Shown: positions 6,523-17,896 of the stretch, piece by piece
How the letters are laid out: each line of letters begins with the position of its first letter
How positions within the stretch are numbered: the first letter of the stretch is position 1
Source of the DNA: Aerococcus urinaehominis
GTDB taxonomy: Bacteria > Bacillota > Bacilli > Lactobacillales > Aerococcaceae
Length of the DNA stretch: 24,000 nucleotides
Direction of reading: 5' to 3'
Assembly: GCF_001543245.1 (NCBI RefSeq)
Contig: NZ_CP014163.1
Span: 950,387-974,386, forward strand
Notes under the pieces: model-generated
Told to the model about the DNA's origin: nothing
Databases searched by the model: none
What the model saw: the letters and a program-made list of their open reading frames with translations, nothing else
Program-made: the position numbers and the translations under genes

Positions 6523-7632
6523 TTACATAGCCGTCTTTTGAGCCATATAATTCTCTAGACGCTCAAAATTAGTTTGCAAGAAATCTTCATCAACTTGGTA
6601 AGGCAGCGTGTGGACCTGGCTGCGCCGGTTCATCCGCTGGGCCAAGTCGCGCGCTAAGTCCTGGTCTAGGACAATCCCCATATCAGCCAGAGCGCACGGC
6701 AGGTTAAGCGGCCTAAAGAAGTCCTGTAGGCGGTCAATCTCCGACCACTTTTCTTCAGCTGCTAGCTGAAAGAAGATGCCATAAGCCACAATCTCACCAT
6801 GGTTATACTGGTGGATAGCCGGCAGGGCTGCCGTCAAAGCATCATGGGCCGCATGGGCTAGGGTCACACGAGCATACTTGTTAGCGAAACCGCCTACCAA
6901 GCCAGCCACTGCCATAATCATTTCTGATACCTGTTTAAAGGCCGGGGTAACTTGACCAGCTGCCATATCGGCAATGGCTTGTTGGGCCTGGTCAAACATG
7001 ATATCCCGACACATAATTGTCGTTTGCCGGGCCAAGATAGGAAAGGCTTCTAGTTGGAACTTTTCCTGGGAGAGAATGGCATCAGACTCATACCACTTGG
7101 CCATGGTATCTGCAACACCAGCGATAAAAAGCCGCTGGGGGGCATCAATAATTAAGCGCGGATCGGCTAGCATAAAAACAGCTTGGCGGTCTTCATGTTC
7201 CGAAATTTCTTCAGCGCTACCATCTTCCTTGTACATCACAGAAATCGGCGTCCAAGGGGCGCAGTTAGAGGCCAAGGTTGGCACCACGCCATAAGGGATA
7301 TTACTGATAGCTGCTGCTTGTAGGGTAACATCACAAATCTTGCCGCCACCGACGCCGATGACAAAGTCAATGTGGTGACTTTGGATGATTTGAGCCAGGC
7401 GGTTAGCTTCCACATAGGAACACTCGCCCCGGTGTTTTTCTTCATAAATAGTGAGTTTACTGCGATAAAGTTTAGCTAAATAAGGTTGCGCCTTTTGCCA
7501 GGACACCTGGCCGTGAACCAACAAGATACGCTGGGCACGGTGGGCCTGCAAAATACCAACCATATCGTCAAGGGCACCCTCATGGTATTGGTAGACCTGG
7601 GGACCAACCTTGACCTTTAAATCATTTAACAA
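6523..7632 (-). CDS. Glycerol dehydrogenase-like, iron-containing alcohol dehydrogenase family oxidoreductase (369 aa, TTG start)
   Basis: GldA-family motifs are present: GVGGGKICDVT (NAD-binding loop), ADTMAKWYE, HAAHDALT and HGEIVAYG (metal ligand positions). A GGAG lies 8 nt upstream of the TTG. Confidence 0.75.
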   Translation of the reverse strand: MLNDLKVKVGPQVYQYHEGALDDMVGILQAHRAQRILLVHGQVSWQKAQPYLAKLYRSKLTIYEEKHRGECSYVEANRLAQIIQSHHIDFVIGVGGGKICDVTLQAAAISNIPYGVVPTLASNCAPWTPISVMYKEDGSAEEISEHEDRQAVFMLADPRLIIDAPQRLFIAGVADTMAKWYESDAILSQEKFQLEAFPILARQTTIMCRDIMFDQAQQAIADMAAGQVTPAFKQVSEMIMAVAGLVGGFANKYARVTLAHAAHDALTAALPAIHQYNHGEIVAYGIFFQLAAEEKWSEIDRLQDFFRPLNLPCALADMGIVLDQDLARDLAQRMNRRSQVHTLPYQVDEDFLQTNFERLENYMAQKTAM

Positions 7633-7695: not shown

Positions 7696-8000
7696 AGCAA
7701 ATTTGCTAGTGTTTGCCCAAGTCGATCACGGTAAACGCTTAAATATAAATCAAAAGAACAAGCTTAGTATTTTAGCAATCTTACAGCCCCCTATATATAT
7801 AAATGATCTGGTTGAGTCACTTTAAAATATGACTATTTCGACTATGATCAAAAAAACACTAATTTTGGTTAAAATTACAGCATCACTTGACTAAAAATCT
7901 TCCTGAAAGACTGCTAATCATTAGGGGATTAATCACCCTTTCCTAATTCGAGATGAAGAACGGCTGATTGAAGAAAGACCGCGCCTTGTTGCTTACAATA

Positions 8001-8029
8001 TTGATAAAATAAATTTGTAATCGATTACT
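8001..8029 (+). promoter_or_regulatory. Putative promoter/operator of bacteriocin module 1; contains the 12-bp perfect palindrome GTAATCGATTAC (8017-8028)
   Basis: TTGATA (8001-8006), a 17-nt spacer, then ATTACT (8024-8029). The 14-nt string TGTAATCGATTACT is identical to 12155-12168, although the flanking spacer sequence differs. Confidence 0.35.
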
Positions 8030-8113
8030 TCAAGTTGAATCACTAATGTTACCATTTATTTTAAGGACTTGTTAGCCTTGCTAGTATGTTATACCTAGAA
8101 AGGAGTGGGTAGT

Positions 8114-8473
8114 GTGCAAGAAGCAGCAAAATATATGCGAATCTATGTATGGATGCGATCATTTATCAACCTAATTGGCATAACGAGCTTTGCTTGGGAC
8201 ATCTTTCTAGTAGCTGCTGTCGATTTATTCACTAACTACGACGATTTCCACCAAAAATTGCACGAAAATAAAAGTTTAATCTACGCCTTTAGCCAATTTA
8301 TCTGGCGTGGCTACGTTTTTTTAACCGGACTAGGCATGTTTACCAAGTTACTAAGAACAGGCCAGTTAATTTGGCAAGCAAGCGATGTCCTGTATGAACT
8401 TGGCTTTGTTGCGGTCCTAAGTTTACCTTTTACTATAATCATCTATATCGCCATTAGAAGGGGAGATATCTAA
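8114..8473 (+). CDS. 119-aa polytopic membrane protein, putative bacteriocin immunity protein (paralog A)
   Basis: Track ORF 8105..8473 trimmed to the GTG at 8114. AGGAG lies 8 nt upstream, and the length then matches the paralog at 12485. It has three to four hydrophobic segments. Its stop overlaps the next start (ATCTAATG). By eye it is roughly 60 percent identical to the 12485 product. Confidence 0.6.
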   Translation: MQEAAKYMRIYVWMRSFINLIGITSFAWDIFLVAAVDLFTNYDDFHQKLHENKSLIYAFSQFIWRGYVFLTGLGMFTKLLRTGQLIWQASDVLYELGFVAVLSLPFTIIIYIAIRRGDI

Positions 8474-8670
8474 TGAAAATCTTACATGAAACATCTATTA
8501 ATGAGGGGTTACTACTGCAAATTAAAGGCGGTGGTAAGCGAACTGATATTGCAGCTGGTATATTACATGGCGCTGCTGCTGGTTTTAAAGTTTGTCCCGC
8601 CGGCTATAAGACTGCTTGTGCTGTAGCTATTGGCGCAGCGGGAGCAGCTTATAGCGCTTGGGGAAATTAG
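8473..8670 (+). CDS. Double-glycine-leader class II bacteriocin precursor, LafX-like Gly/Ala-rich peptide (beta-1; 65 aa)
   Basis: Leader and mature peptide: MKILHETSINEGLLLQIKGG|GKRTDIAAGILHGAAAGFKVCPAGYKTACAVAIGAAGAAYSAWGN. Hydrophobic residues occupy -4, -7 and -12. The mature peptide has 2 Cys and GxxxG/AxxxA motifs. A GGGGAG Shine-Dalgarno lies inside the upstream gene. Confidence 0.85.
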   Translation: MKILHETSINEGLLLQIKGGGKRTDIAAGILHGAAAGFKVCPAGYKTACAVAIGAAGAAYSAWGN

Positions 8671-8758
8671 ATCTTATCATTATATAAAACAACCTTGTAT
8701 AGCCCCATCTTGCATGAACCACCTCCATTAAGTAAACAATAATATAAATAAATACTGA

Positions 8759-8793
8759 GACCGCCTATACTAGTTGTATAGGTGATCTTTTTT
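8759..8793 (+). terminator. Rho-independent terminator of module 1
   Basis: The stem pairs 8764-8770 with 8776-8782, with an imperfect extension. The loop is tagtt, followed by T6 (8788-8793). Confidence 0.55.
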
Positions 8794-8863
8794 ATATCCG
8801 TATCTTTGATTCCATTTTTTAAAGAAATCAGATGAGCTACATCTTCTATACTAAATTAATACA

Positions 8864-8896
8864 TAAAAATCCCCCTAAAGTAGTTTACCTTAGGGG
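8864..8896 (-). terminator. Terminator after the DUF975-like gene (end of the ABC operon)
   Basis: The 7-bp stem CCCCTAA/TTAGGGG pairs 8872-8878 with 8890-8896 around an 11-nt loop. It is followed on the minus strand by a T5 run. Confidence 0.5.
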
Positions 8897-8959
8897 AAGC
8901 ACATTAAATTCTAGATTCTCTCATTATATGAATATTGGCATCACTGTCGAGTTAGTTAA

Positions 8960-9583
8960 CTATGCCTGCACAGCTTGCCTGTAAAGAGCTATCATTTTTT
9001 CCTGATAGCTACGATAACTGGCAACCATTAGCGGGCTGGTTACGACAGTGGCTAGCAGCATAAAACATAGTAAAGGGGTCAGGCTAGCACCTGCTACACC
9101 TGGCTGGCGTAAAGGAGCTAGGAAAATCGGGTAGCCCAATAACAACATAGCTAGTTGCAGACCTGCAATTTTAAAAGAGCAAGTCAAACGGTAGCCACAT
9201 ATTTGCCAACGGTGACCCTTGGCTAGCTGCTGACTCTCTGCCAGTAATTTTCGTGAGCCACTGTCAGACCTATCCATCAACAGGTATGGCGCTAGGCTAT
9301 AATCCAATGACTTGATCACGCCAGGAACCACCAATAGTAATGACCATAAGCCCACTTTCACACAGGTAACTAGTTGTAGAAAGACGAAGCGACTTAGGTA
9401 ACTGGTAGGCTCCTGCCTAGAACCAGCAAACAACCGCCATAAACCAAGCGCCAAGACTAACTGTGCCAAAATATTAGCTAGTAGCCCCCAAAACTCATAG
9501 AAGCTCGTTAAGTAGACATTAGCCATTAAAAGTATTAGTAAATAGATCGCCAATAAACGGTTGGTTGTTAAAGTGAGTTTCAT
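8960..9583 (-). CDS. 207-aa polytopic membrane protein, DUF975-like; candidate immunity or partner protein for the upstream GG peptide
   Basis: Track ORF 8960..9667 trimmed to the ATG at 9583, with AGGAG 8 nt upstream. It has five to six hydrophobic segments. The segment VIKSLDYSLAPYLLMDRSDSGSRKLLAESQQLAKGHRWQ resembles the DUF975 core as I remember it, which has not been verified. Confidence 0.55.
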   Translation of the reverse strand: MKLTLTTNRLLAIYLLILLMANVYLTSFYEFWGLLANILAQLVLALGLWRLFAGSRQEPTSYLSRFVFLQLVTCVKVGLWSLLLVVPGVIKSLDYSLAPYLLMDRSDSGSRKLLAESQQLAKGHRWQICGYRLTCSFKIAGLQLAMLLLGYPIFLAPLRQPGVAGASLTPLLCFMLLATVVTSPLMVASYRSYQEKMIALYRQAVQA

Positions 9584-9611
9584 TTTCAAAGCTCCTATTT
9601 CTCTTAAATTT

Positions 9612-9788
9612 TTATTGGTAAACCTGAGCTGGACAATAAACGGCTGGGAATTTAATGCTTTGGGCAATTTCGGGCCTCATCTTACCGCTAGCAACTAAGT
9701 CAGCTATCCGAGCTTGCTGAGCCCTAATATTGGCACATAGATTGCCACCACGAACTAGTCCTAGCTGACGATTATCGAGCTTATTCAT
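9612..9788 (-). CDS. Double-glycine-leader peptide precursor (58 aa) with a hydrophilic, two-cysteine 43-aa mature part
   Basis: Track ORF 9612..9878 trimmed to the ATG at 9788, preceded by AGGAGGTGAT. The start overlaps the ABC stop by 8 nt (ATGAATAA). Sequence: MNKLDNRQLGLVRGG|NLCANIRAQQARIADLVASGKMRPEIAQSIKFPAVYCPAQVYQ. The leader has L-12, L-7 and V-4. Confidence 0.75.
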   Translation of the reverse strand: MNKLDNRQLGLVRGGNLCANIRAQQARIADLVASGKMRPEIAQSIKFPAVYCPAQVYQ

Positions 9789-11949
9789 CTGAATCACCTC
9801 CTGTCTGGTCTTGGCCATACATGGCCTGATAAAGTTCAGACTGCTGTAATAGAGTTTGCTGGTCACCGTCACCAACAATCCGTCCCTGGTCTAATAAAAT
9901 CACCCGGTCAAATTGGGCAACCAAGGGTAGATGATGGGCAATAAAAATAATGGTCTTGTCTAAAGAAAGTAAGTAACTAACCACCTGCTTTTCTAGGATG
10001 GGATCCATGGCACTAGTCGCCTCATCTAAGATATAAATATCTGCATCCCGTAACAAGGCACGAGCTAGGACAATCCTTTGTTTTTGCCCACCTGATAAGT
10101 TTTGACCCCCTTCTTCGAGCGGTTGGTCTAGCCCCAGCGAATGACTCAGGGCAAAATCTCTTAAGTCCAACTGATTCATGACATATTCAATGCGGCCGAA
10201 GCTAATCTGGTCCTCTTGGTCCAAGACCAAGTTATTATACAAACTCCCCTTTATAATAAAATTATCCTGGGGCAGGTAATAAATTCGCTCGCGAAGCGAT
10301 TGAATTTTCAAATCATTAATAGCAAGGTCCTCAAAACAGATTTGACCAGTTTGGGGACGATGGAGGGCAACTAGGAGTTTGGCCAGGCTAGACTTACCAG
10401 ACCCGCTAGGCCCTACCAAGGCTACTTTTTGCCCATAAGGGATGGTTAAATTAATATCTTCTAAGGTAATTTGATTAATATTATAGGCGAAGGACAGTTG
10501 GCAGATACTGATCTCCTTCTTCAAGTTATTCGTATAAATCCCATACTGGTTGCTTGCATACTCACTGTCAATTTCCAGGACCTCATTTAAACGCTGGTTG
10601 GCAACACCAGCTTCCTGGAGACTAGCTTGAAGCTTGAAAATATTTTGCAAGGGACCAGTAAAATAAACAACTAGGGCATTGTAAGTGATTAATTGCCCCA
10701 AAGTCAGCTGGCCTTGCATCACCAGATAAGCGCCATACCACAAGGTCAGGCTAGTTGTTAACAAACCAACCAATTCTTTGATACTTTCTTGCTTAATCTC
10801 TAAAACAGCTGTAATGAGCGCATCCCGCATGGTAACTAAAAACTGAAATCTTACTGCCTGCTTAGCAGCAGTCGTATAGTTATTGGTTTTTAGGCTCTCG
10901 ATTCCTTGTAAGTATTCAATAATCTTAGCGTTCAATTGACTTTGACTGGACATTTCTTCTCTGTTGGCCTGATCGAGTGGCTTAACAAATCGGTAGATGG
11001 CCAAGAAATAAAAAGGCAAAGAGAGTAAAGTTAATAAAAATAAAAAGCCATTTTGCCAGGCTAGTGTTAACCCAACAATAACCGCCATCCCAACATCTAA
11101 AACCAGGGTGATAGATGCTGAGCCTAGAGCATTGACAATTTTATTGGCATCTAAGAAGCGAGAGATAATGTCACCGGCCTGGCGGTTAGTAAAAAAATCT
11201 AAGGGTAGGTCTAAAACATGGTTAAAATAATCTAACATAATTGTTTGGCTCATCTCTTGACCCAAAATTACCAATAATTTGCTCCGAATGTATTTAAAAA
11301 TGACCATGGCCAAGTAGGCAGCTAATAAACCTAGAGAAAAAACATTTAGCCAGTGATAGTTGTTCCGAGGAATTAATTGGTCAATCAGTACTTGAAAATA
11401 AAAAGAAGACCCAATGCTAATAGCGATGACCACTATTGAAGCCAAAATAATTTTAGCCAGCAGGATTTTATTATCCATAATCAGTGAGAAAAACTGTGAT
11501 AGCCCTTTACTTTTATGAACTTGGATTTGATAATTTTCTCCTGGCGTCGGAATCAAGAGGACACCCGTCCAAATACTTGCAAAGTCAGCCAAGCTCATCT
11601 GTATTTTAGCTTCAGCCGGATCAGCAATTAACAGTTGGTCACCCTCTAGACCATAGACAACTAGGTAATGGAGTTGGTCACCTTCTTTAATGACATGGGC
11701 GATGGCCGGGAAGGACATGTCCGGATCTTGCCAAACAGTATTATCAGCCTCAACTGCCAAACAATCAAAGCCATAGCCCTCTAAGGCTATTTTCAGACCA
11801 TAGGCAGAAGTCCCCTGCTTATCTGTACCTGATTCTCGTCTTAACCGGTGTAAGGGCACCTGGCTGCCGTAATGGGCTAGGACCATGGCCAAACAGGCAA
11901 CACCACAATCACTCTGGTCCTGTTGGGCAATAAATTTAAATTTAGCCAT
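9781..11949 (-). CDS. Bacteriocin-processing ABC transporter with N-terminal C39 peptidase domain (722 aa; ComA/LagD/BlpA type)
   Basis: C39 catalytic Cys context QDQSDCGVACLAMVLAHYG and His context HYLVVYG. It has a six-TM ABC domain, Walker A GPSGSGKSS, signature LSGGQKQR and Walker B IYILDEATSAMD. GGGGGAG lies 6 nt before the ATG. Confidence 0.95.
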   Translation of the reverse strand: MAKFKFIAQQDQSDCGVACLAMVLAHYGSQVPLHRLRRESGTDKQGTSAYGLKIALEGYGFDCLAVEADNTVWQDPDMSFPAIAHVIKEGDQLHYLVVYGLEGDQLLIADPAEAKIQMSLADFASIWTGVLLIPTPGENYQIQVHKSKGLSQFFSLIMDNKILLAKIILASIVVIAISIGSSFYFQVLIDQLIPRNNYHWLNVFSLGLLAAYLAMVIFKYIRSKLLVILGQEMSQTIMLDYFNHVLDLPLDFFTNRQAGDIISRFLDANKIVNALGSASITLVLDVGMAVIVGLTLAWQNGFLFLLTLLSLPFYFLAIYRFVKPLDQANREEMSSQSQLNAKIIEYLQGIESLKTNNYTTAAKQAVRFQFLVTMRDALITAVLEIKQESIKELVGLLTTSLTLWYGAYLVMQGQLTLGQLITYNALVVYFTGPLQNIFKLQASLQEAGVANQRLNEVLEIDSEYASNQYGIYTNNLKKEISICQLSFAYNINQITLEDINLTIPYGQKVALVGPSGSGKSSLAKLLVALHRPQTGQICFEDLAINDLKIQSLRERIYYLPQDNFIIKGSLYNNLVLDQEDQISFGRIEYVMNQLDLRDFALSHSLGLDQPLEEGGQNLSGGQKQRIVLARALLRDADIYILDEATSAMDPILEKQVVSYLLSLDKTIIFIAHHLPLVAQFDRVILLDQGRIVGDGDQQTLLQQSELYQAMYGQDQTGGDSDE

Positions 11950-11985
11950 CTATAGCTCCCCCAAATTTTAAATCAGTTTTAGCTT

Positions 11986-12050
11986 ATTCTATCTATTTAA
12001 AAACAAAACTGTGATAATCCTTCCTAAACTGCTATTAATTTTTCATGAAT
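11986..12050 (-). promoter_or_regulatory. Candidate regulated promoter of the ABC operon with paired direct repeats
   Basis: Minus strand reads ATTCATGA (12050..12043), 13 nt, GTTTAGGA (12029..12022), 30 nt, then TAGAAT (11991..11986). The repeat starts are 21 bp apart, the same layout as at 16827-16890. Confidence 0.4.
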
Positions 12051-12139
12051 CGAACAGCATAGTATATTTAACTAACTTATTCACAGTTTAAGAAGAAAAA
12101 AAGTAATTTAATGAAGGTTTTTTCTAAGAACTTAAAATC

Positions 12140-12168
12140 TTGTTATACTAAAGATGTAATCGATTACT
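12140..12168 (+). promoter_or_regulatory. Putative promoter/operator of bacteriocin module 3; contains the palindrome GTAATCGATTAC (12156-12167)
   Basis: TTGTTA (12140-12145), a 17-nt spacer, then ATTACT (12163-12168). The geometry and palindrome match 8001-8029. Confidence 0.35.
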
Positions 12169-12235
12169 AAACGAACCTTGGCAACCAATGGAAGTTTTGT
12201 TAGTTAGCTAAGCCTAGTGAAAGGAGGTCGTCATA

Positions 12236-12454
12236 ATGAATTTTACAAAATTAGAAGATCAATCACTAAAATCAATTCGAGCCGGCCATAATAAGTGGCA
12301 GCAATTAGGAGAGGTGACTAAAGGAATGGTTGAGGTTGGTGCTGGTGGTGCAGCTTTAGGTAGTGTAGTCTGTGGACCTGGTTGTGCCGTTCTAGGTGGT
12401 TTAGCAGGTGTCGCTGTAGGTGGCGCCACAGGTGCCTTAGATGCCCAAAATTAA
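12236..12454 (+). CDS. AG-leader class IIb-type bacteriocin precursor, LafA/GatA-like (alpha; 72 aa)
   Basis: Sequence: MNFTKLEDQSLKSIRAG|HNKWQQLGEVTKGMVEVGAGGAALGSVVCGPGCAVLGGLAGVAVGGATGALDAQN. The leader has L-12, L-7 and I-4. The mature N-terminus xNxWQ and the VCGPGCAV motif recall lactacin F LafA (RNNWQTN...ICGPACAV) as I remember it. AAGGAGG lies 8 nt upstream. Confidence 0.85.
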   Translation: MNFTKLEDQSLKSIRAGHNKWQQLGEVTKGMVEVGAGGAALGSVVCGPGCAVLGGLAGVAVGGATGALDAQN

Positions 12455-12484
12455 AAAATTAAATTTTAAAAGGAGGTTGGCCCT

Positions 12485-12844
12485 ATGACAAAAGCAGCAA
12501 AATATATGCGTATCTATGTCTGGATTAGATTGTTGATCAACCTGCTAGGCATAACGAGCTTTGCTTGGGATATCCTTCTAGTAGCTGCTGTCCACTTATT
12601 TACCAGCTACAAAGATTTCCACAAAATTTTTCAAGCAAACAAAAACATGACCTATTTCTTCAGCCAAGCAATCTGGCGTGGCTATGTTGATTTAACTGGA
12701 GTAGCTATGCTTATCAGATTATTACAATCAGGTCAACTGTCCTGGCAAGCCAGTGATATTATTTATAACTTTGGTGGTATTATTTTGTTAAGTTTAATTT
12801 GTACTGGAATTACTTATATAGCTGTTAGAAGGGGAGATATCTAA
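12485..12844 (+). CDS. 119-aa polytopic membrane protein, putative immunity protein (paralog B)
   Basis: AGGAGG lies 8 nt upstream. It is a paralog of 8114..8473, sharing AAKYMRIYVW, ITSFAWDI, LVAAV, IWRGYV, SWQASD and RRGDI. Its stop overlaps the next ATG (TAATG). Confidence 0.65.
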   Translation: MTKAAKYMRIYVWIRLLINLLGITSFAWDILLVAAVHLFTSYKDFHKIFQANKNMTYFFSQAIWRGYVDLTGVAMLIRLLQSGQLSWQASDIIYNFGGIILLSLICTGITYIAVRRGDI

Positions 12845-13038
12845 TGAAAATTTTACATGAAAAAACTATTAAAGCAGAAAGACTACTAAAAATAAAAGGC
12901 GGTGGTAAGCGCACTGATGTGGCATCTAATATGCTGTCGTGGGCTGCAGCTGGCTACCGCATTTGTCCCGCCTATAAACCGGTCTGTGCCGTAGTTGGAG
13001 GAGCAGCCGGTGCAGCTTATGGCGCCTGGGGTAATTAA
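12844..13038 (+). CDS. Double-glycine-leader bacteriocin precursor (beta-2; 64 aa), paralog of 8473..8670
   Basis: Sequence: MKILHEKTIKAERLLKIKGG|GKRTDVASNMLSWAAAGYRICPAYKPVCAVVGGAAGAAYGAWGN. By eye it is roughly 70 percent identical to beta-1. Confidence 0.85.
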   Translation: MKILHEKTIKAERLLKIKGGGKRTDVASNMLSWAAAGYRICPAYKPVCAVVGGAAGAAYGAWGN

Positions 13039-13054
13039 TAATAAGTAAACAACA

Positions 13055-13094
13055 TAAAAAAACTTCGCTGAGCAACTCGCTAGCGAAGTTTTTT
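13055..13094. terminator. Bidirectional terminator between the convergent beta-2 and response regulator genes
   Basis: The stem CTTCGCT/AGCGAAG pairs 13063-13069 with 13082-13088. It is flanked by an A-run (13055-13062) and a T-run (13089-13094). Confidence 0.65.
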
Positions 13095-13848
13095 ATGTCT
13101 TATGTTTAGCTAATACAAATTTTTCTAACGCCACTTTCTTGCTGGCTGAGAAGGGTAATTGGTCACCATTATCAAGCGTGAGCAATCGCTTGTCACCATC
13201 AACCAAACGAATTTTATCGGGATTGATTAGGGTGCTACGACTAATACCAAATAAGTCTTGGGGATATTCCCTTTGGTAGGCTTTAATTTTGCCATAGAAC
13301 TGATAATGCCCGGTCTCTGTCACCAGTTCCAAACGGTGGGGCAGCGATGAGATCTGGATATAAATCACCTCATCAATTAAAAATCGATAGACTTTGTTGC
13401 CTATTTTAAAAGAAATCATAGGATCCTCTTGATTTGAAACGCTATTTTCTTGGTCCGTGATCAAATTTAAACACTGGAAAATTTCTTGACGCATCACCTC
13501 TTTATCACCCTTTTCAACTAGGGCAAAGGGTTCTACCTTGCGCTTCAAGACCATAGGAGCATATTTAGTATGGCTGGTAATAAAAATAATTTTACCAAAG
13601 GGATCTATCTGGCGAATCGCTGTTGCTAAATCAATGCCATTGGTGTCAAGGTTGCCTAATTCAATATCTAGAAAATAAACACCCAGTCTCACTTGATCTG
13701 CCTGAATCTGATTAAATAAGTCAGCTGGATCTGGACTGAAGCCCCCCATTTTATAAGCATGGTTATGAAAAAGGACATAATCTTTAATGATATCAGTAAT
13801 ATCTAGTAGCTGGATAGAATTATCGTCACAAATATAGATTGAGTGCAT
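13093..13848 (-). CDS. LytTR-family response regulator (251 aa; AgrA/ComE/PlnC type)
   Basis: The receiver domain has the phospho-acceptor context VYFLDIEL. The C-terminal LytTR domain reads ISFKIGNKVYRFLIDEVIYIQ...FGISRSTLINPDKI. TAGGAGG lies 5 nt upstream. Confidence 0.9.
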   Translation of the reverse strand: MHSIYICDDNSIQLLDITDIIKDYVLFHNHAYKMGGFSPDPADLFNQIQADQVRLGVYFLDIELGNLDTNGIDLATAIRQIDPFGKIIFITSHTKYAPMVLKRKVEPFALVEKGDKEVMRQEIFQCLNLITDQENSVSNQEDPMISFKIGNKVYRFLIDEVIYIQISSLPHRLELVTETGHYQFYGKIKAYQREYPQDLFGISRSTLINPDKIRLVDGDKRLLTLDNGDQLPFSASKKVALEKFVLAKHKT

Positions 13849-15112
13849 AAAAACCTCCTAAGGGGCTGTGATAATCAATTGAACAGAAAAAGTGTTAGCT
13901 TGATTTTCAAGATGTATAAAAAGATTAGGATATTTCTTGGCGATACGCCGCAAATTAGACAAACCCAAACCCGTATGATTGGCTTTACTAGAAAAGCCCT
14001 TAATTTGAATTTTTTCTAAATCAATCGCTTGATTTAAAGAGTTTTCAATATAAATTTCAATTTGATTGCCTTCTAAATAAAACAAGATATTGATTTGACG
14101 AGCCTGGTTCTGATCAGCTACCGCCTCAAGCGCATTGTCTAATAAAATTCCTAGAATACGAATCAGGTCATAGTCAGCAAGATAAAAATCCTGTATATTA
14201 TGCGGACATTCAAAATAAACCAAGACTCCCTTGTCTGCAATCAAATAGAATTTTTCTAGTAGCAGGGCTTTTACATAAGGATTTTTTACCTTAGTAAGAT
14301 CTAAAATTTTATCATTTTTGATATCTAACTCTCTTTTTGAGTAGCTATCCAAGCCTGCTACAAATTCTAATAAATCATCTATACGATTATCATTCAAAAG
14401 AGATTTAACAGTAGTCAATAGATTCTTATAATCATGCCTAAAGGCCCTTATTTTATCTTGGCTTGCTTCTAGTTGGTCTACATATTTAGCCATATTATCT
14501 AGTCGAGCCTCCATTAACTTATGCTCGTATTCTCTCCTGTTATTTTGCAAGATAACAAATACAAACACTGCCACAACTATAATCTGCAAAACAAAAAAAT
14601 AGAAAGACTCCTGTACCCGATTTTGAGAACCTGCACTCGTAGGAAGTATAATATTATTGTAGAACCCAAGTATGTTCAGCAAAGCGAATATACTATAATT
14701 AACCAGAGGAAGTAGCGGATTTTTAAAATATGGCGAATTGATGTATCGCTTTGTCACAACTAAAGTCAAAATACACACTAGCAAACTAGGGATTAATCGC
14801 TTCAAGTAGTCAAAAAATATTATTTGCGAAACATCCTCTATTGCTTGACTCATCAAATAATTTCCTGCCACATAATCAAAGCATTCCAAAATAAATTGTG
14901 GCATTAGTGTAGCAAAAATGATCTGTGATGACTCCCTTTTTTTGAATTATATAAAAAGAAAAGGAATATGGCATAGAGAATATCGATTAAATTTACGGTA
15001 TTAAAAGGCAATAAATTGAGTAGTGAATTAAGAAAAATAAAAGGATATATGCTTACTAGGCCAATTCCAATTTTTCTTAATTTAAAATCATCTAACAGGT
15101 AAGCTGTTCCCA

Positions 15113-15120
15113 AACATCTA
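15113..15120. repeat. Target-site duplication, left copy (AACATCTA; possibly 9 bp with the A at 15112)
   Basis: Identical to 16446-16453 and immediately flanks the IS inverted repeats. Confidence 0.8.
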
Positions 15121-16445
15121 GATTAAGTCCATATAATTGTGTAAAAAGAAAAACCATAATAATCTTTTTTGGTTACAATGTAATTGGCTAAAACACATTG
15201 AAAGGAAGATTATTATGGCTCAACTAAATATTACCCTAAACTTAGAAGAAATTACAGAGGCAGTTCTAAACAGTGATATGGATCAGATGATGAAGTCCCT
15301 AACTGTAACCATCTTTAATGCCTATATGCAAGCAGAGCGTGAGGAATTTATTAATGCTAAGCGCTATGAGCGCACAGATGACCGGAAAGATTATCGTAAT
15401 GGCTCCTATAAAAGAAACTTTAAAACAAAGGTAGGGACTGTTGAACTGGATGTCCCTCGGACACGATCAGGAGAATTTGATACCAAGCTATTCGATAAAT
15501 ATCAACGTATGGACAAGGCCTTTGTGGCTGTTTTAACCGAAATGTATATTAATGGGGTCTCAACACGCCGTATTAAGAAGGTTGTTGAAACACTCTGTGG
15601 CGAAGGTGTTTCTAAATCATTTGTCTCTTCAGTAAATAAAAACTTGGACCCTGCTGTTTTCGAATTTAAAGGGCGTTCCCTAACACATACGAATTTTCGA
15701 TATGTTTATGTCGATGCCATGTATATTAAAGTTCGCGAAAACCATCGTTCTGTCTCTAAAGGTGTTTATATTGCTCAGGGTATTAACGATGATAATCGTC
15801 GCGAAATTATCGGCTTTATGATTGCTGATAATGAATCAGAAGAAAACTGGAAGAACTTCTTCCTTGATTTAAAGGCCAGAGGCCTAACTAAACCAACATT
15901 AATTATATCTGACGCCCACAAGGGACTAAAATCAGCGATTAGTAATCAATTTTTAGGCACTACCTGGCAACGGTGTACGGTTCATTTTCTACGTAATATT
16001 TTAGCTCATTTTCCAAAAAAGGATTGCAGTCATGAGAGAAGTCTTCTAAAGAGAATATTTAATGCTGATAGTCAACAAAGAGCGCGAGAGTTAAAATTTG
16101 AATTTGTAGAATACGTTAGTGGCAATGAGAAATATGACAAAGCTGTTAATACGCTAGAGGAAGGCTTCGAAGATGCTATCCCATACTTATTAGAACCCAC
16201 ACCTTATCGCGTTTCACTGAAAACAACTAACAGTCTAGAAAGGCTAAATCGAGAAATTAGAAGAAGAGAGAAAGTTGTCGGCCTCTTTCCTAATATAGAG
16301 GCTGCGGAGCGACTTATAGGAAGTGTATTGCTTGATTTGCATGAATATTGGGAGACATGTCCTCATAAATTCTTTAATAACATAGTCTAAATATTTATAC
16401 CCACCAATTACATTCTATAATTTACACAAGATTGTGGACTTGACA
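15121..16445 (+). mobile_element. IS256-family insertion sequence (about 1.3 kb)
   Basis: Imperfect terminal inverted repeats: left gattAAGTCCAtataaTTGTGTAAA (15121-15145), against the right-end reverse complement tgtcAAGTCCAcaatcTTGTGTAAA (16445-16421). It has a single transposase ORF and a perfect 8-9 bp direct repeat of the target. Confidence 0.85.
15215..16390 (+). CDS. IS256-family (mutator-type) DDE transposase (391 aa)
   Basis: Track ORF 15137..16390 trimmed to the ATG at 15215 (GAAAGGAAG upstream). MAQLNITLNLEE...YERTDDRKDYRNGSYKRNFKTKVGTVELDVPRTRSGEF...VYVDAMYIKVRE...ISDAHKGL...WQRCTVHFLRN is a typical IS256-family sequence. Confidence 0.9.
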   Translation: MAQLNITLNLEEITEAVLNSDMDQMMKSLTVTIFNAYMQAEREEFINAKRYERTDDRKDYRNGSYKRNFKTKVGTVELDVPRTRSGEFDTKLFDKYQRMDKAFVAVLTEMYINGVSTRRIKKVVETLCGEGVSKSFVSSVNKNLDPAVFEFKGRSLTHTNFRYVYVDAMYIKVRENHRSVSKGVYIAQGINDDNRREIIGFMIADNESEENWKNFFLDLKARGLTKPTLIISDAHKGLKSAISNQFLGTTWQRCTVHFLRNILAHFPKKDCSHERSLLKRIFNADSQQRARELKFEFVEYVSGNEKYDKAVNTLEEGFEDAIPYLLEPTPYRVSLKTTNSLERLNREIRRREKVVGLFPNIEAAERLIGSVLLDLHEYWETCPHKFFNNIV

Positions 16446-16453
16446 AACATCTA
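16446..16453. repeat. Target-site duplication, right copy (AACATCTA)
   Basis: Identical to 15113-15120. Confidence 0.8.
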
Positions 16454-16511
16454 AAAGCAAAAACGGCTACTATTCTTAATAAAAAGGCCCAAAGTGTCAT
16501 ATCTATACTAC

Positions 16512-16640
16512 TTATTTGATACGGCATTGTCTTAATAGATTAAAAATCAGCGCACAATTTTTTTCTTTAGAATTAGCCTGGTTATAGTTGAAAACGCCAC
16601 CTTTAATTAATTTAAGTTGATTAATTGCTATTTTTTTCAA
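16512..16640 (-). CDS. Putative inducer-peptide (pheromone) precursor with double-glycine leader (42 aa, TTG start)
   Basis: Not in the ORF track. AAGGAG (16654..16649) lies 8 nt before the TTG at 16640. Sequence: MKKIAINQLKLIKGG|VFNYNQANSKEKNCALIFNLLRQCRIK. The 3' end overlaps the kinase start (16527) by 16 nt, which is the classic IP-HK-RR gene order. Confidence 0.7.
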   Translation of the reverse strand: MKKIAINQLKLIKGGVFNYNQANSKEKNCALIFNLLRQCRIK

Positions 16641-16813
16641 AATAAACACTCCTTTAATATTTAAAATTCTGCACTAAAAATTCATTTCAATGGCACGATA
16701 GTATATAATACTCACTTCTTACTAGATATATATTAATTGTCAAAAAAATATTTAGCTACTCAATCATCTTATCAGTAAATGAGTACTACTTTATAGCCCC
16801 CCCCTCACAAACC

Positions 16814-16890
16814 ATTCAAGAGATAAATTCAAGAACTAAATACTTGCATTCAGGAAACATTCTCCCTTCTCTCAATATAGTTGTTATAAT
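16814..16890 (+). promoter_or_regulatory. Candidate LytTR-regulated promoter: three ATTCA(A/G)GA direct repeats plus an extended -10
   Basis: ATTCAAGA occurs at 16814-16821 and 16827-16834, and ATTCAGGA at 16848-16855. The last two starts are 21 bp apart. TGTTATAAT lies at 16882-16890, 37 nt after the last repeat start. No good -35 is present. Confidence 0.5.
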
Positions 16891-16933
16891 AATGTTGTAA
16901 GCAGTTACAAAGTTTTTTGAAAGGAGCTTTCCG

Positions 16934-17106
16934 ATGCAAAATGATAAGTCATTACCTGATGAGTGGTTAAAAAAGTCCGTGGTGGTTCCAATGATTACAT
17001 CTGGACCCAAATAGGTCGGCATGCTGGTAATTTTATGAATTGTATGGACAAGCCTGTTAGCACCGACCCCTTCGTTTCTGCCGGTTACTGTATTGGTCCA
17101 AAATGA
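16934..17106 (+). pseudogene. Frameshifted double-glycine-leader bacteriocin precursor
   Basis: Not in the track. GAAAGGAG lies 7 nt before the ATG at 16934. As written, the frame stops after 26 codons. Adding one A to the A6 run (16969-16974) gives MQNDKSLPDEWLKKVRGG|SNDYIWTQIGRHAGNFMNCMDKPVSTDPFVSAGYCIGPK, with L-12, L-7 and V-4, ending at 17106. Confidence 0.6.
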
Positions 17107-17130
17107 GTGATTTAAACTAGGAGGATTATC

Positions 17131-17289
17131 ATGAAAAAATATCATACCTTGAAAAAATCAGAATTGATGCAAATCAAAGCTGGAGGTGCTGCTTTGAATA
17201 TTATCTCAACCATTGGTAGTTTTCTTATAGCTGACGCTTGGAGACATAGCGATCAAATTAGGGAGGGCTACCAACAAACGCGCCACTAG
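17131..17289 (+). CDS. GG/AG-leader bacteriocin-like peptide precursor (52 aa)
   Basis: Not in the track. AGGAGG lies 6 nt before the ATG. Sequence: MKKYHTLKKSELMQIKAG(G)|AALNIISTIGSFLIADAWRHSDQIREGYQQTRH. The LxxSELxxIxAG leader fits the consensus if cleavage follows AG. Confidence 0.75.
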   Translation: MKKYHTLKKSELMQIKAGGAALNIISTIGSFLIADAWRHSDQIREGYQQTRH

Positions 17290-17315
17290 TAACATATAAA
17301 TGAAGGATGATTACT

Positions 17316-17528
17316 ATGAAAAAGGGATTAATTGAGGATTTAAAAGTGATTATAGCAACCTTCATCTTTGGTCTAGCCTGGCTGCTAATCACTAGCTACA
17401 TATCAGGAAGTCAACCTCTGCTAGTAGCTGAAGATTATAAATTTCTCTTTACCTATACCTTTATTGTATCGGTCGTGTTCATAGGCAGCCGTCTAATTAA
17501 AGGTCAAAAAACTAATAAAAGTAATTAA
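17316..17528 (+). CDS. Small two-TM membrane protein (70 aa), putative immunity protein of the 16934/17131 peptide pair
   Basis: Track ORF 17307..17528 trimmed to the ATG at 17316, with AAGGA 8 nt upstream. It has two hydrophobic helices and a basic C-terminus. It is the last gene before the terminator. Confidence 0.55.
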   Translation: MKKGLIEDLKVIIATFIFGLAWLLITSYISGSQPLLVAEDYKFLFTYTFIVSVVFIGSRLIKGQKTNKSN

Positions 17529-17532
17529 TTAA

Positions 17533-17560
17533 AGTAGCCCGCAACCGGGCTACTTTTATA
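17533..17560 (+). terminator. Rho-independent terminator
   Basis: The 9-bp stem AGTAGCCCG/CGGGCTACT pairs 17533-17541 with 17546-17554. The loop is caac, followed by TTTTATATTTT. Confidence 0.7.
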
Positions 17561-17598
17561 TTTTCAGCGCAAGATCTGCTAAATTAGTCCCCAATCTA

Positions 17599-17715
17599 TC
17601 AGGCACAAATTTTACCATAACAGGCCCGCAACCAATCCCAGGCTTTCTTTAGGTCCTGAACGCCTCCAAAGCCCGCTTTAACTTGTCTGAGCTCTTGATT
17701 AGATAAAGTTTTCAT
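17599..17715 (-). CDS. Orphan AG-leader peptide precursor (38 aa)
   Basis: Not in the track. AAAGGAGGGGG lies upstream of the ATG at 17715. Sequence: MKTLSNQELRQVKAG|FGGVQDLKKAWDWLRACYGKICA. The leader matches the LSxxELxxVxxG consensus exactly apart from Ala at -2. The mature 23-mer ends in C-x5-C-A. Confidence 0.65.
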   Translation of the reverse strand: MKTLSNQELRQVKAGFGGVQDLKKAWDWLRACYGKICA

Positions 17716-17841
17716 CAACTTCCCCCTCCTTTAATTGTATATACAATTCCATAATAAACCAAGTCTGTTTTAACTCTGATTAGTCTTCTTAAATCTGCTT
17801 TTTTTATTCCTGAACGAAAACTGTTGGTATCATTAGCTAAC

Positions 17842-17885
17842 AAAATAGCACCCTAGCGAAACTATCCTGCTAAGGTGCTATTTTT
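17842..17885 (-). terminator. Terminator after the distal metQ-like gene
   Basis: The 8-bp stem ATAGCACC/GGTGCTAT pairs 17845-17852 with 17874-17881, with further inner pairing. It is flanked by A and T runs and lies 12 nt after the stop at 17897. Confidence 0.55.
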
Positions 17886-17896
17886 ACCTACTGATA

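Follow-up and report, generated by a model that had tools for sequence, protein, structure and literature searches.

In the pln, sakacin P (spp), and pneumococcal and thermophilus blp regulons, one three-component system governs several operons through paired 9-bp repeats with 21-bp phasing, the promoters involved lack a -35 element, and one exporter serves multiple peptides. The lactacin F, gassericin T, and gassericin E loci of Lactobacillus johnsonii and Lactobacillus gasseri couple an inducer peptide, an HPK10-type kinase, a LytTR regulator, and a C39-peptidase ATP-binding cassette (ABC) exporter to two-peptide bacteriocins, with 9-bp direct repeats and AT-rich spacers at their promoters. 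Gassericin E, with its gene sets gaePKRTC and gaeAXI and its 9-bp direct repeats, is a characterized locus of comparable design (PMC4788914, which also mentions the blp repeats). A further family comprises enterocin X of Enterococcus faecium KU-B5 and acidocin X of Lactobacillus acidophilus DSM 20079, the latter reported as produced in vitro and as related to the former (PMC5471241). Here, a locus at positions 7700-17890 of a 24,000-nucleotide stretch of the Aerococcus urinaehominis genome (assembly GCF_001543245.1, contig NZ_CP014163.1, positions 950,387 to 974,386 of the forward strand; this entire stretch is called the window, and its positions are used unless genome positions are stated) is compared with these systems.

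The locus is a real bacteriocin locus of a fairly ordinary kind, built from modules of already known types, and because these modules have different relatives the name "composite," given to it in an earlier sequence-only reading of the window, is apt. The class II bacteriocin and quorum-sensing identity proposed in that reading is supported by domain scores, leader enrichment, and conservation. Judged from its sequence, the locus is best understood, with a probability of roughly 80%, as a low-GC island of ~10.2 kb that was acquired horizontally, that encodes class II (unmodified) bacteriocins under peptide quorum sensing, and that is now decaying, with its sensor kinase and one peptide gene broken.

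A Cluster of Double-glycine Leader Peptides

The eight small genes that had been read by hand from both strands are all present, each with a strong Shine-Dalgarno (SD) sequence 5-10 nt 5' of its start, as had also been claimed.

8473-8670, plus strand: pep1, 65-aa GG-leader precursor, LafX-like (beta), 45-aa mature part, 2 Cys; SD GGGGAG
9612-9788, minus strand: pep2, 58-aa GG-leader precursor with an orphan hydrophilic 43-aa mature part, 2 Cys, overlapping the exporter stop by 8 nt; SD AGGAGG
12236-12454, plus strand: pep3, 72-aa AG-leader precursor, LafA-like (alpha), CGPGC motif, several GxxxG; SD AAGGAGG
12844-13038, plus strand: pep4, 64-aa GG-leader precursor, LafX-like (beta); SD GGGGAG
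16512-16640, minus strand: pep5, candidate induction peptide with GG leader and 27-aa cationic mature part, C-x9-C, weak EntF induction-factor match, 5' of kinase and regulator genes; SD AAGGAG
16934-17106, plus strand: pep6, enterocin X-alpha/acidocin X-like precursor, frame broken at an A6 run (16969-16974); SD GAAAGGAG
17131-17289, plus strand: pep7, 52-aa AG-leader precursor, enterocin X-beta/acidocin X-like, HSDQI..GY motif; SD AGGAGG
17599-17715, minus strand: pep8, 38-aa precursor with near-consensus leader and 23-aa mature part, C-x5-C, bacteriocin or orphan pheromone; SD AAAGGAGGGGG

The leaders, of 15-20 residues, end in GG or AG and carry the expected hydrophobic residues (L, I, or V) at -4, -7, and -12 in all eight cases, in 16934-17106 only across the frameshift. 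Each of the eight precursors thus combines a double-glycine leader with a mature part of 20-60 residues, and cleavage at this point is predicted. Predicted mature masses are ~4277, 4400, 5102, 3824, 4731, and 2627 Da (monoisotopic, before disulfides). Open reading frames (ORFs) of at least 30 aa were enumerated between 7000 and 18500. Four genes of less than 60 aa had been described as absent from the list of ORFs supplied with the window, which holds for 16512-16640, 16934-17106, 17131-17289, and 17599-17715; it does not extend to 9612-9788 (58 aa), which sits inside an 88-aa ORF.

When the leader expression together with the SD requirement was applied to every ATG, GTG, and TTG start of the 1.83-Mb genome, 29 starts were retrieved, of which eight, representing seven genes, fall in the island, where 0.12 would be expected (Poisson P ~5.5e-11). 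The 21 matches outside the island look spurious. The leader pattern is thus clustered in the island far beyond expectation. The impression given in the sequence-only reading, formed by eye, that the island is more AT-rich than its surroundings is likewise borne out by computation: the GC content is 37.7% (37.8% without the insertion sequence (IS) described below) vs 43.4% in the flanks and 42.75% in the genome.

The exporter, the LytTR regulator, the broken kinase, and four membrane-protein genes that are candidates for immunity are all confirmed, and the hairpin terminators, together with five promoters that carry phased repeats, back the proposed arrangement in six short transcription units.

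Unit 1, 8114-8670: membrane-protein/beta-peptide cassette, by its sequence a diverged duplicate of its counterpart in 12236-13038
Exporter unit: exporter, orphan peptide 9612-9788, and DUF975-like membrane protein, co-transcribed
Unit 3, 12236-13038: two-peptide operon of the lactacin F/gassericin type with an interleaved 119-aa membrane protein
Inducer operon: inducer peptide, kinase, and LytTR regulator
Unit 5, 16934-17528: enterocin X/acidocin X-type pair with a small candidate immunity gene, kept in a congener
Unit 6, 17599-17715: single orphan peptide

The Lactacin F-type Modules

Two of the units are variations on a single theme, in which the gene of a beta peptide is translationally coupled to that of a small membrane protein.

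8114-8473, plus strand: imm1, 119-aa helical membrane protein, candidate immunity, stop overlapping the pep1 start
8762-8784, plus strand: terminator hairpin of unit 1
12485-12844, plus strand: imm2, 119-aa membrane protein between the alpha and beta genes
13062-13093, unstranded: bidirectional hairpin terminator between pep4 and the regulator gene, read by eye, its loop being too long for the hairpin scan

For imm1, a start at GTG 8114, giving 119 aa, is likelier than one at 8105. Against the PF10439 (Bacteriocin_IIc) threshold of 27.1 bits, pep4 scores 27.0, pep1 19.5, and pep3 16.7 bits. The pep3 peptide aligns with LafA-type peptides, with which it has the N-terminal N.W and CGP.C in common, and pep1 and pep4 align with LafX-type peptides along an Ala/Gly-rich frame with two Cys. 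Among 400 sampled genomes of the order, ten others have a homologue of pep3, with per-genome E values from 6e-11, the best, to 1e-9. Adjacent alpha/beta pairs are also found in the loci L044, L047, L048, and L050; in L050, the peptide beginning RNNWQ is identical to the Lactobacillus taiwanensis lactacin F-family peptide of Table 5 in PMC5471241, and the one beginning NRWGD equals the L. taiwanensis entry of the same table save for its C terminus. Alpha and beta genes in one operon and GxxxG motifs, the marks of the lactacin F family, are both found in the pair 12236/12844. From these alignments and the occurrence of the alpha/beta order elsewhere, 12236-12485-12844 is recognized as a lactacin F-type two-peptide operon.

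Compared with the lactacin F, gassericin T, and gassericin E loci, the likeness lies in the alpha peptide, with its x-N-x-W and CGPxC, in the Gly/Ala-rich beta peptide with two Cys, and in the GG-type leaders, as well as in the regulatory and export genes and promoter repeats outlined above. There are also differences. Identity is only ~30-45%; the membrane-protein gene lies here between alpha and beta, there after beta; an extra membrane-protein/beta cassette is present; and the 119-aa proteins are unrelated in sequence.

This extra cassette, 8114-8670, has 74-76% nucleotide identity to the membrane-protein/beta half of 12236-13038, of which it is, on this comparison, a diverged duplicate. 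The paralogues yield dN/dS of 0.28 for pep1/pep4 (Fisher P 1e-4) and 0.30 for imm1/imm2 (Fisher P 2e-6), each at dS ~0.8, which points to purifying selection on beta peptide and membrane protein alike. In three of the loci named above, from other Lactobacillales genomes, L048 (G335:C8), L047 (G068:C39), and L044 (G302:C2), the alpha/beta pairs are accompanied by unrelated membrane proteins of 67-119 aa, and in L048, from a Lactobacillus genome, the order is alpha, membrane protein, beta, membrane protein, as here. Searches of 5.8 billion proteins with a word-indexed method returned, for pep4 and for the imm1/imm2 pair, only the window's own proteins, and a profile of the two beta paralogues retrieved from 1.84 billion representatives only itself and a repetitive 872-aa protein. 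The AlphaFold2 model of the 119-aa protein, built from a two-row alignment, is all-helical with a pLDDT of 52 and a pTM of 0.31, too poor for a fold search.

The Enterocin X-type Module

A different two-peptide family is represented at the other end of the island, where the genes pep6 and pep7 are followed by a third small gene.

17307-17528, plus strand: imm3, 70-73-aa two-helix membrane protein, candidate immunity for pep6/pep7
17531-17556, unstranded: hairpin terminator common to the convergent units 5 and 6

In pep6, the frame opened by ATG 16934 meets that of GTG 16963 at the A6 run. The congener G032 has, downstream of its inducer-kinase-regulator sets and exporter gene, intact homologues of all three genes (63, 52, and 70 aa for 16934, 17131, and 17307, respectively) in the same order, with identities of 43-47% for the two peptides and 37% for the membrane protein; dN/dS for the 17131 peptide is ~0.25, at a saturated dS. 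The motifs S-N-D-Y-I-W-T-.-I-G and H-S-D-Q-I-..-G-Y match, by eye, those of acidocin X as its sequences are printed in PMC5471241, and a pep7 profile also retrieves the L. rhamnosus-type pair of the table in that paper. Family motifs, adjacency, and a candidate immunity gene are all found when the module is scored against G032, L077, and L078. This conserved trio and the family motifs identify 16934-17528 as an operon of the enterocin X/acidocin X type whose alpha gene is broken here. As in the described members (PMC5471241), alpha begins with S-N-(D/N)-..-W-T-.-(I/V)-G and has two Cys, beta contains H-S-D-Q-I-..-G-(Y/F), and the adjacent genes are followed by one for a small two-helix membrane protein. 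The module differs in that alpha is frameshifted and its nearest intact relative is the congener at 43-47% identity.

A 109-aa ORF at 16816-17145 on the minus strand, antisense to pep6 and its promoter, has no family match and is most likely spurious.

The Inducer-Kinase-Regulator Operon and Its Lesions

The order of peptide, kinase, and regulator genes, the last of the LytTR type, is present in the island; the kinase is not intact, being interrupted by an IS and by a frameshift in an A7 run.

13093-13848, minus strand: response regulator, receiver and LytTR domains, 251 aa, intact
13858-14904, minus strand: C-terminal 348 codons of an AgrC-like histidine kinase, H-box and GHKL domain (HATPase_c_5)
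14904-15120, minus strand: middle kinase fragment with membrane segments, ending at the IS junction
14937-14943, minus strand: A7 run, one-base shift of the kinase frame
15121-16445, plus strand: IS256-family element, 1325 bp, inverted ends, 8-bp target duplication AACATCTA at 15113-15120 and 16446-16453
16446-16527, minus strand: kinase codons 1-27, separated from the rest by the IS, their start overlapping the end of the inducer gene

The start of the inducer gene, pep5, is ambiguous between TTG 16640 and GTG 16649. Insertional inactivation by IS256 is exemplified by ica phase variation in Staphylococcus epidermidis. The present element resembles that case in its IS256-family transposase (ORF 15137-16390; NF033543, 387 bits), its 8-bp duplication, and its many identical copies, and it has the terminal inverted repeats of the family; it differs in that its target is a quorum-sensing kinase. 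Nine copies, this one and eight elsewhere in the genome, are 100% identical, which suggests a recent burst of transposition.

When the two flanks of the IS were joined by script, one continuous frame ran from ATG 16527 into the ORF at 14904-15113, which places the IS after kinase codon 27. The pieces of the kinase sum to ~445 residues vs 435 in the intact kinase of G032. In a second public assembly, GCA_900103385.1, stretches of 15.5 kb and 5.2 kb match at 100% identity, both homopolymer runs and both IS junctions included, and the contigs of that assembly end in the IS; the lesions are thus not errors of a single assembly. Taken together, the IS and the A7 frameshift in the kinase and the A6 frameshift in pep6 lead to the prediction that induced production has been lost or has fallen to a basal level and that the locus is decaying. 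In this strain, the locus is probably silent.

In the congener G032 (loci L039, G032:C8:108000-122000, and L034), there are two tandem inducer-kinase-regulator-exporter sets, with stop codons in both copies of the exporter. These stops in G032 indicate that the congener locus is decaying as well, at another gene.

Elsewhere in the A. urinaehominis genome (L081, genome positions 1195500-1204500), the gene of a second kinase (440 aa) shares its strand with that of a LytTR regulator (249 aa), at a distance of 2.6 kb; a transporter-like and a peptidase-like gene lie between them, and genes for large Ser/Thr/Gln-rich surface proteins flank the two. No GG peptide was noticed beside this kinase or regulator.

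The Exporter Unit

The unit that supplies the export function also carries one of the orphan peptides.

8870-8898, minus strand: terminator hairpin of the exporter unit
8960-9583, minus strand: 207-aa membrane protein with five hydrophobic segments, weak (sub-threshold) DUF975 match, candidate pep2 immunity
9781-11949, minus strand: C39-peptidase ABC exporter, 722 aa, intact

The exporter scores 700.2 bits against TIGR01193 (peptide cleavage/export ABC transporter; cut-off 523.85), has the Pfam domain order Peptidase_C39, ABC_membrane, ABC_tran, and contains the only C39 peptidase in the genome. Its QSDCG (residues 12-16), LHYLVVYG, and IADP are taken here to be the catalytic Cys, His, and Asp motifs. 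Homologues of the exporter occur in only five of the 24 congeners, at 27-47% identity (four of them at 39-47%), G032 being the closest of the five, and a search of wider genome contigs found only remote transporters at 23-29% identity (Anaerovibrio, Geomicrobium, and others). For the 207-aa protein, comparison with 5.8 billion proteins returned its own sequence or weak DUF975 matches, one weak match lacking any bacteriocin context.

Promoter Elements of the Units

Five promoters have in common two 9-mers of the approximate form RTTYARGAA, exactly 21 bp apart, placed 27-29 nt 5' of the -10 element and facing the genes. Two of these promoters also carry a palindrome resembling a catabolite-responsive element (cre).

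7946-7975, plus strand: 9-12-9 repeat ATTCGAGAT / ATTGAAGAA, candidate LytTR box of unit 1, 29 nt before -10 TAAAAT; rank 188
8016-8029, unstranded: cre-like palindrome TGTAATCGATTACT, 5 nt 3' of the unit 1 -10, fitting WTGNAANCGNWNNCW
12021-12050, minus strand: 9-12-9 repeat ATTCATGAA / GTTTAGGAA, exporter unit, 29 nt before -10 TAGAAT; rank 3
12086-12115, plus strand: 9-12-9 repeat GTTTAAGAA / TTTAATGAA, unit 3, 28 nt before -10 TATACT; rank 72
12155-12168, unstranded: second copy of the cre-like palindrome TGTAATCGATTACT, 5 nt 3' of the unit 3 -10, fitting WTGNAANCGNWNNCW
16814-16856, plus strand: three ATTCARGAR repeats of unit 5, the last two (16827, 16848) forming the best 9-12-9 box of the genome, 28 nt before -10 TATAAT; rank 1
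17786-17815, minus strand: 9-12-9 repeat GTTCAGGAA / ATTTAAGAA, pep8, 28 nt before -10 TATTAT; rank 2

The ranks come from a position weight matrix scan over 3.66 M genome positions, repeated in leave-one-out fashion because the sites had been picked by eye. Relative to the pln, spp, and blp regulons, the repeat here, RTTYARGAA with a TTCNNGAA core, is specific to this regulator, and a cre-like operator overlies two of the promoters. A different repeat, TCATCATATCTGGT twice at a 21-bp spacing, lies 5' of the inducer gene in G032, as expected because the regulators are only 35-37% identical. In the divergent promoter region between the inducer and enterocin X-type operons, just 5' of the boxes, there is also a C8 homopolymer (16797-16804), the length of which could vary.

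A CcpA orthologue is encoded at genome positions 503903-504895 (444 bits vs a cut-off of 442); its gene has a near-consensus cre site within its own coding region (504301). The loose 15-nt cre consensus by itself occurs about as often as expected by chance. Only seven sites in the genome lie within one mismatch of TGTAANCGNTTACA. When the five of them outside the island and two looser sites were checked, five of the seven proved to be 26-93 nt 5' of genes for a GH3 glycosidase, an MFS sugar transporter, two phosphotransferase system (PTS) permeases, and CstA (related cre-like sites at genome positions 739318, 763858, 1233427, 1763177, and 290549; GH3, MFS_2, PTS EIIC, PTS EIIBC, and CstA). CcpA control is reported for a related peptide-signaling operon, comCDE (PMC10269683). 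The palindromes in the island suggest that, with preferred sugars at hand, CcpA may repress both lactacin F-type units.

In an intact locus, these elements would work together as follows. The exporter would cut the leaders after GG or AG and secrete the peptides, and the 27-residue inducer would build up outside the cell until it activates the membrane kinase, which would phosphorylate the regulator; this in turn would bind the repeat pairs and turn on all units. The predicted products are a lactacin F/gassericin-type bacteriocin (12236 as alpha and 12844 as beta, with 8473 as a spare beta), an enterocin X/acidocin X-type two-peptide bacteriocin (16934 and 17131), the orphan peptide 9612-9788, exported with the transporter operon, and 17599-17715, an orphan peptide of 23 residues. 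Protection of the producer would fall to the adjacent membrane proteins, and the cre-like palindromes may add CcpA repression of the two lactacin F-type units.

Weighing the Alternatives

Several observations, given in this paragraph and the next, weigh against the reading of the island as a quorum-sensing bacteriocin locus in decay. The sites behind the weight matrix were chosen by eye, and in the leave-one-out scan two of the boxes come no higher than ranks 72 and 188. On the strand that encodes inducer, kinase, and regulator, the search for a repeat box yielded only the unit 5 box in reverse complement; given the nearly palindromic half-site core TTCNNGAA, this neighboring box might serve both directions. 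Homologue searches came back empty for 9612-9788, 16512-16640, and 17599-17715 (for the first and the last, among 400 genomes of the order and the sequences of the Protein Data Bank (PDB)), leaving their roles to be read only from leader, SD, position, and promoter. Conservation of the small ORFs, the lack of which the sequence-only reading had named as grounds for abandoning its view, is found for the other five peptides. Three genes of eight without a homologue might also be what chance ORFs in AT-rich spacer DNA would look like. The probability of that explanation is nevertheless negligible, given the clustering in the island (seven genes vs 0.12 expected), dN/dS of ~0.25-0.3 where measurable, the homologues in other genomes, and the SD of every gene together with its place behind a box promoter or within an operon; for five of the eight genes, the explanation is refuted. 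A role for pep8, and possibly also pep2, in signaling rather than as bacteriocins, for example as an orphan pheromone that the second kinase would sense or as what is left of another regulatory cassette, is a serious alternative, because inducer peptides adjacent to kinases in congeners have similar Cys pairs near the C terminus, spaced five to eight residues apart; even so, it is somewhat less probable than a bacteriocin role. The 23-residue mature part of pep8, with its C-x5-C loop, falls within the 20-27-residue range of inducers seen here, its repeat box is strong and its own (rank 2), no immunity gene is adjacent, G032 has two inducer-kinase-regulator sets, and in the congener G011 the peptide directly 3' of the exporter gene precedes a kinase and a regulator. 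No kinase adjoins pep8, however, mature pep2, at 43 residues, is rather long to be an inducer, and the pep2 gene is followed by one for a membrane protein. Antimicrobial activity is also found in some pheromones, plantaricin A among them, so that the two roles are compatible.

The 119-aa proteins raise a related difficulty, in that imm1 and imm2 have no homologue elsewhere, match no known immunity family, and find no counterpart among PDB sequences. The gassericin E system has an accessory protein (PMC4788914); no GaeC equivalent is present here, the best genome-wide match to the HlyD-like bacteriocin accessory family (TIGR01000) being one of 16 bits in an unrelated 909-aa frame, nor does an accessory protein adjoin the exporter at the G032 locus. 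It is conceivable on these grounds that the 119-aa proteins are not immunity proteins but another kind of partner, for example an export or maturation helper in place of the missing accessory protein, and the position of their genes 5' of the beta peptide, to which they are translationally coupled, would suit such a function. This is nonetheless unlikely, as peptide genes of the same family elsewhere are likewise accompanied by small membrane proteins without sequence relation, 67 to 124 aa long (110-124 aa in three loci), one Lactobacillus genome has the identical alpha/membrane/beta/membrane order, size and helicity suit small membrane immunity proteins, and immunity proteins are notoriously divergent. 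The predicted silence of the locus can be questioned as well. No lesion affects the regulator, the exporter, six peptide genes, or any of the membrane-protein genes, and a TG in front of several -10 boxes could allow basal transcription. The second intact AgrC-like kinase, at ~1.198-1.202 Mb together with a second LytTR regulator, could in principle substitute for the broken one. Continued production, with the intact regulator activated by that kinase or by acetyl phosphate or acting unphosphorylated, is still distinctly improbable: the IS also parts the kinase and regulator genes from the inducer gene promoter, kinase knock-outs are known to abolish induction in the pln, spp, and blp systems, and kinases of the HPK10 type mostly answer only to their cognate peptide. 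A horizontally acquired bacteriocin island with a broken induction circuit remains the preferred reading.

Extent of the Island

At the DNA level, the island has no match in any of the 24 congeners, and neither peptide 17131 nor the IS has a match in the plasmid collection. On its left lies a gene resembling those for Fe-dependent alcohol/glycerol dehydrogenases (Fe-ADH; 6523-7632), which is present in only three of the 24 congeners; on its right is a gene for a MetQ-type lipoprotein, which has another neighborhood in the closest relatives. Because the one gene is rare and the other relocated, synteny with an empty site is uninformative, and the borders of the island are set by GC content and gene content only. 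The same two facts indicate that the accessory region probably exceeds the bacteriocin island itself.

Implications

Two known families of two-peptide bacteriocins gain divergent members from this locus. Beyond them, three peptides and two types of membrane protein are without detectable relatives in very large protein collections and can be tested as new antimicrobials or immunity factors. A bolder proposal is that these parts, namely the 43-residue exporter-coupled peptide with its DUF975-like protein and the 119-aa family, are new families of bacteriocins and immunity proteins, that the exporter works without an accessory protein, and that a three-layer switch may run the locus, composed of quorum sensing, cre repression, and reversible A7/A6 slippage with IS256-type insertion and excision; this is very much a long shot. 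The cre-like operators suggest more simply that carbon status gates part of the quorum-sensing regulon.

As an example of decay in a multi-bacteriocin locus, the island is a clean one. The genes for export, regulation, and protection have been kept, the sensor kinase has been hit twice, and one toxin peptide has been hit once, a pattern that fits a shift from producer to immune non-producer.

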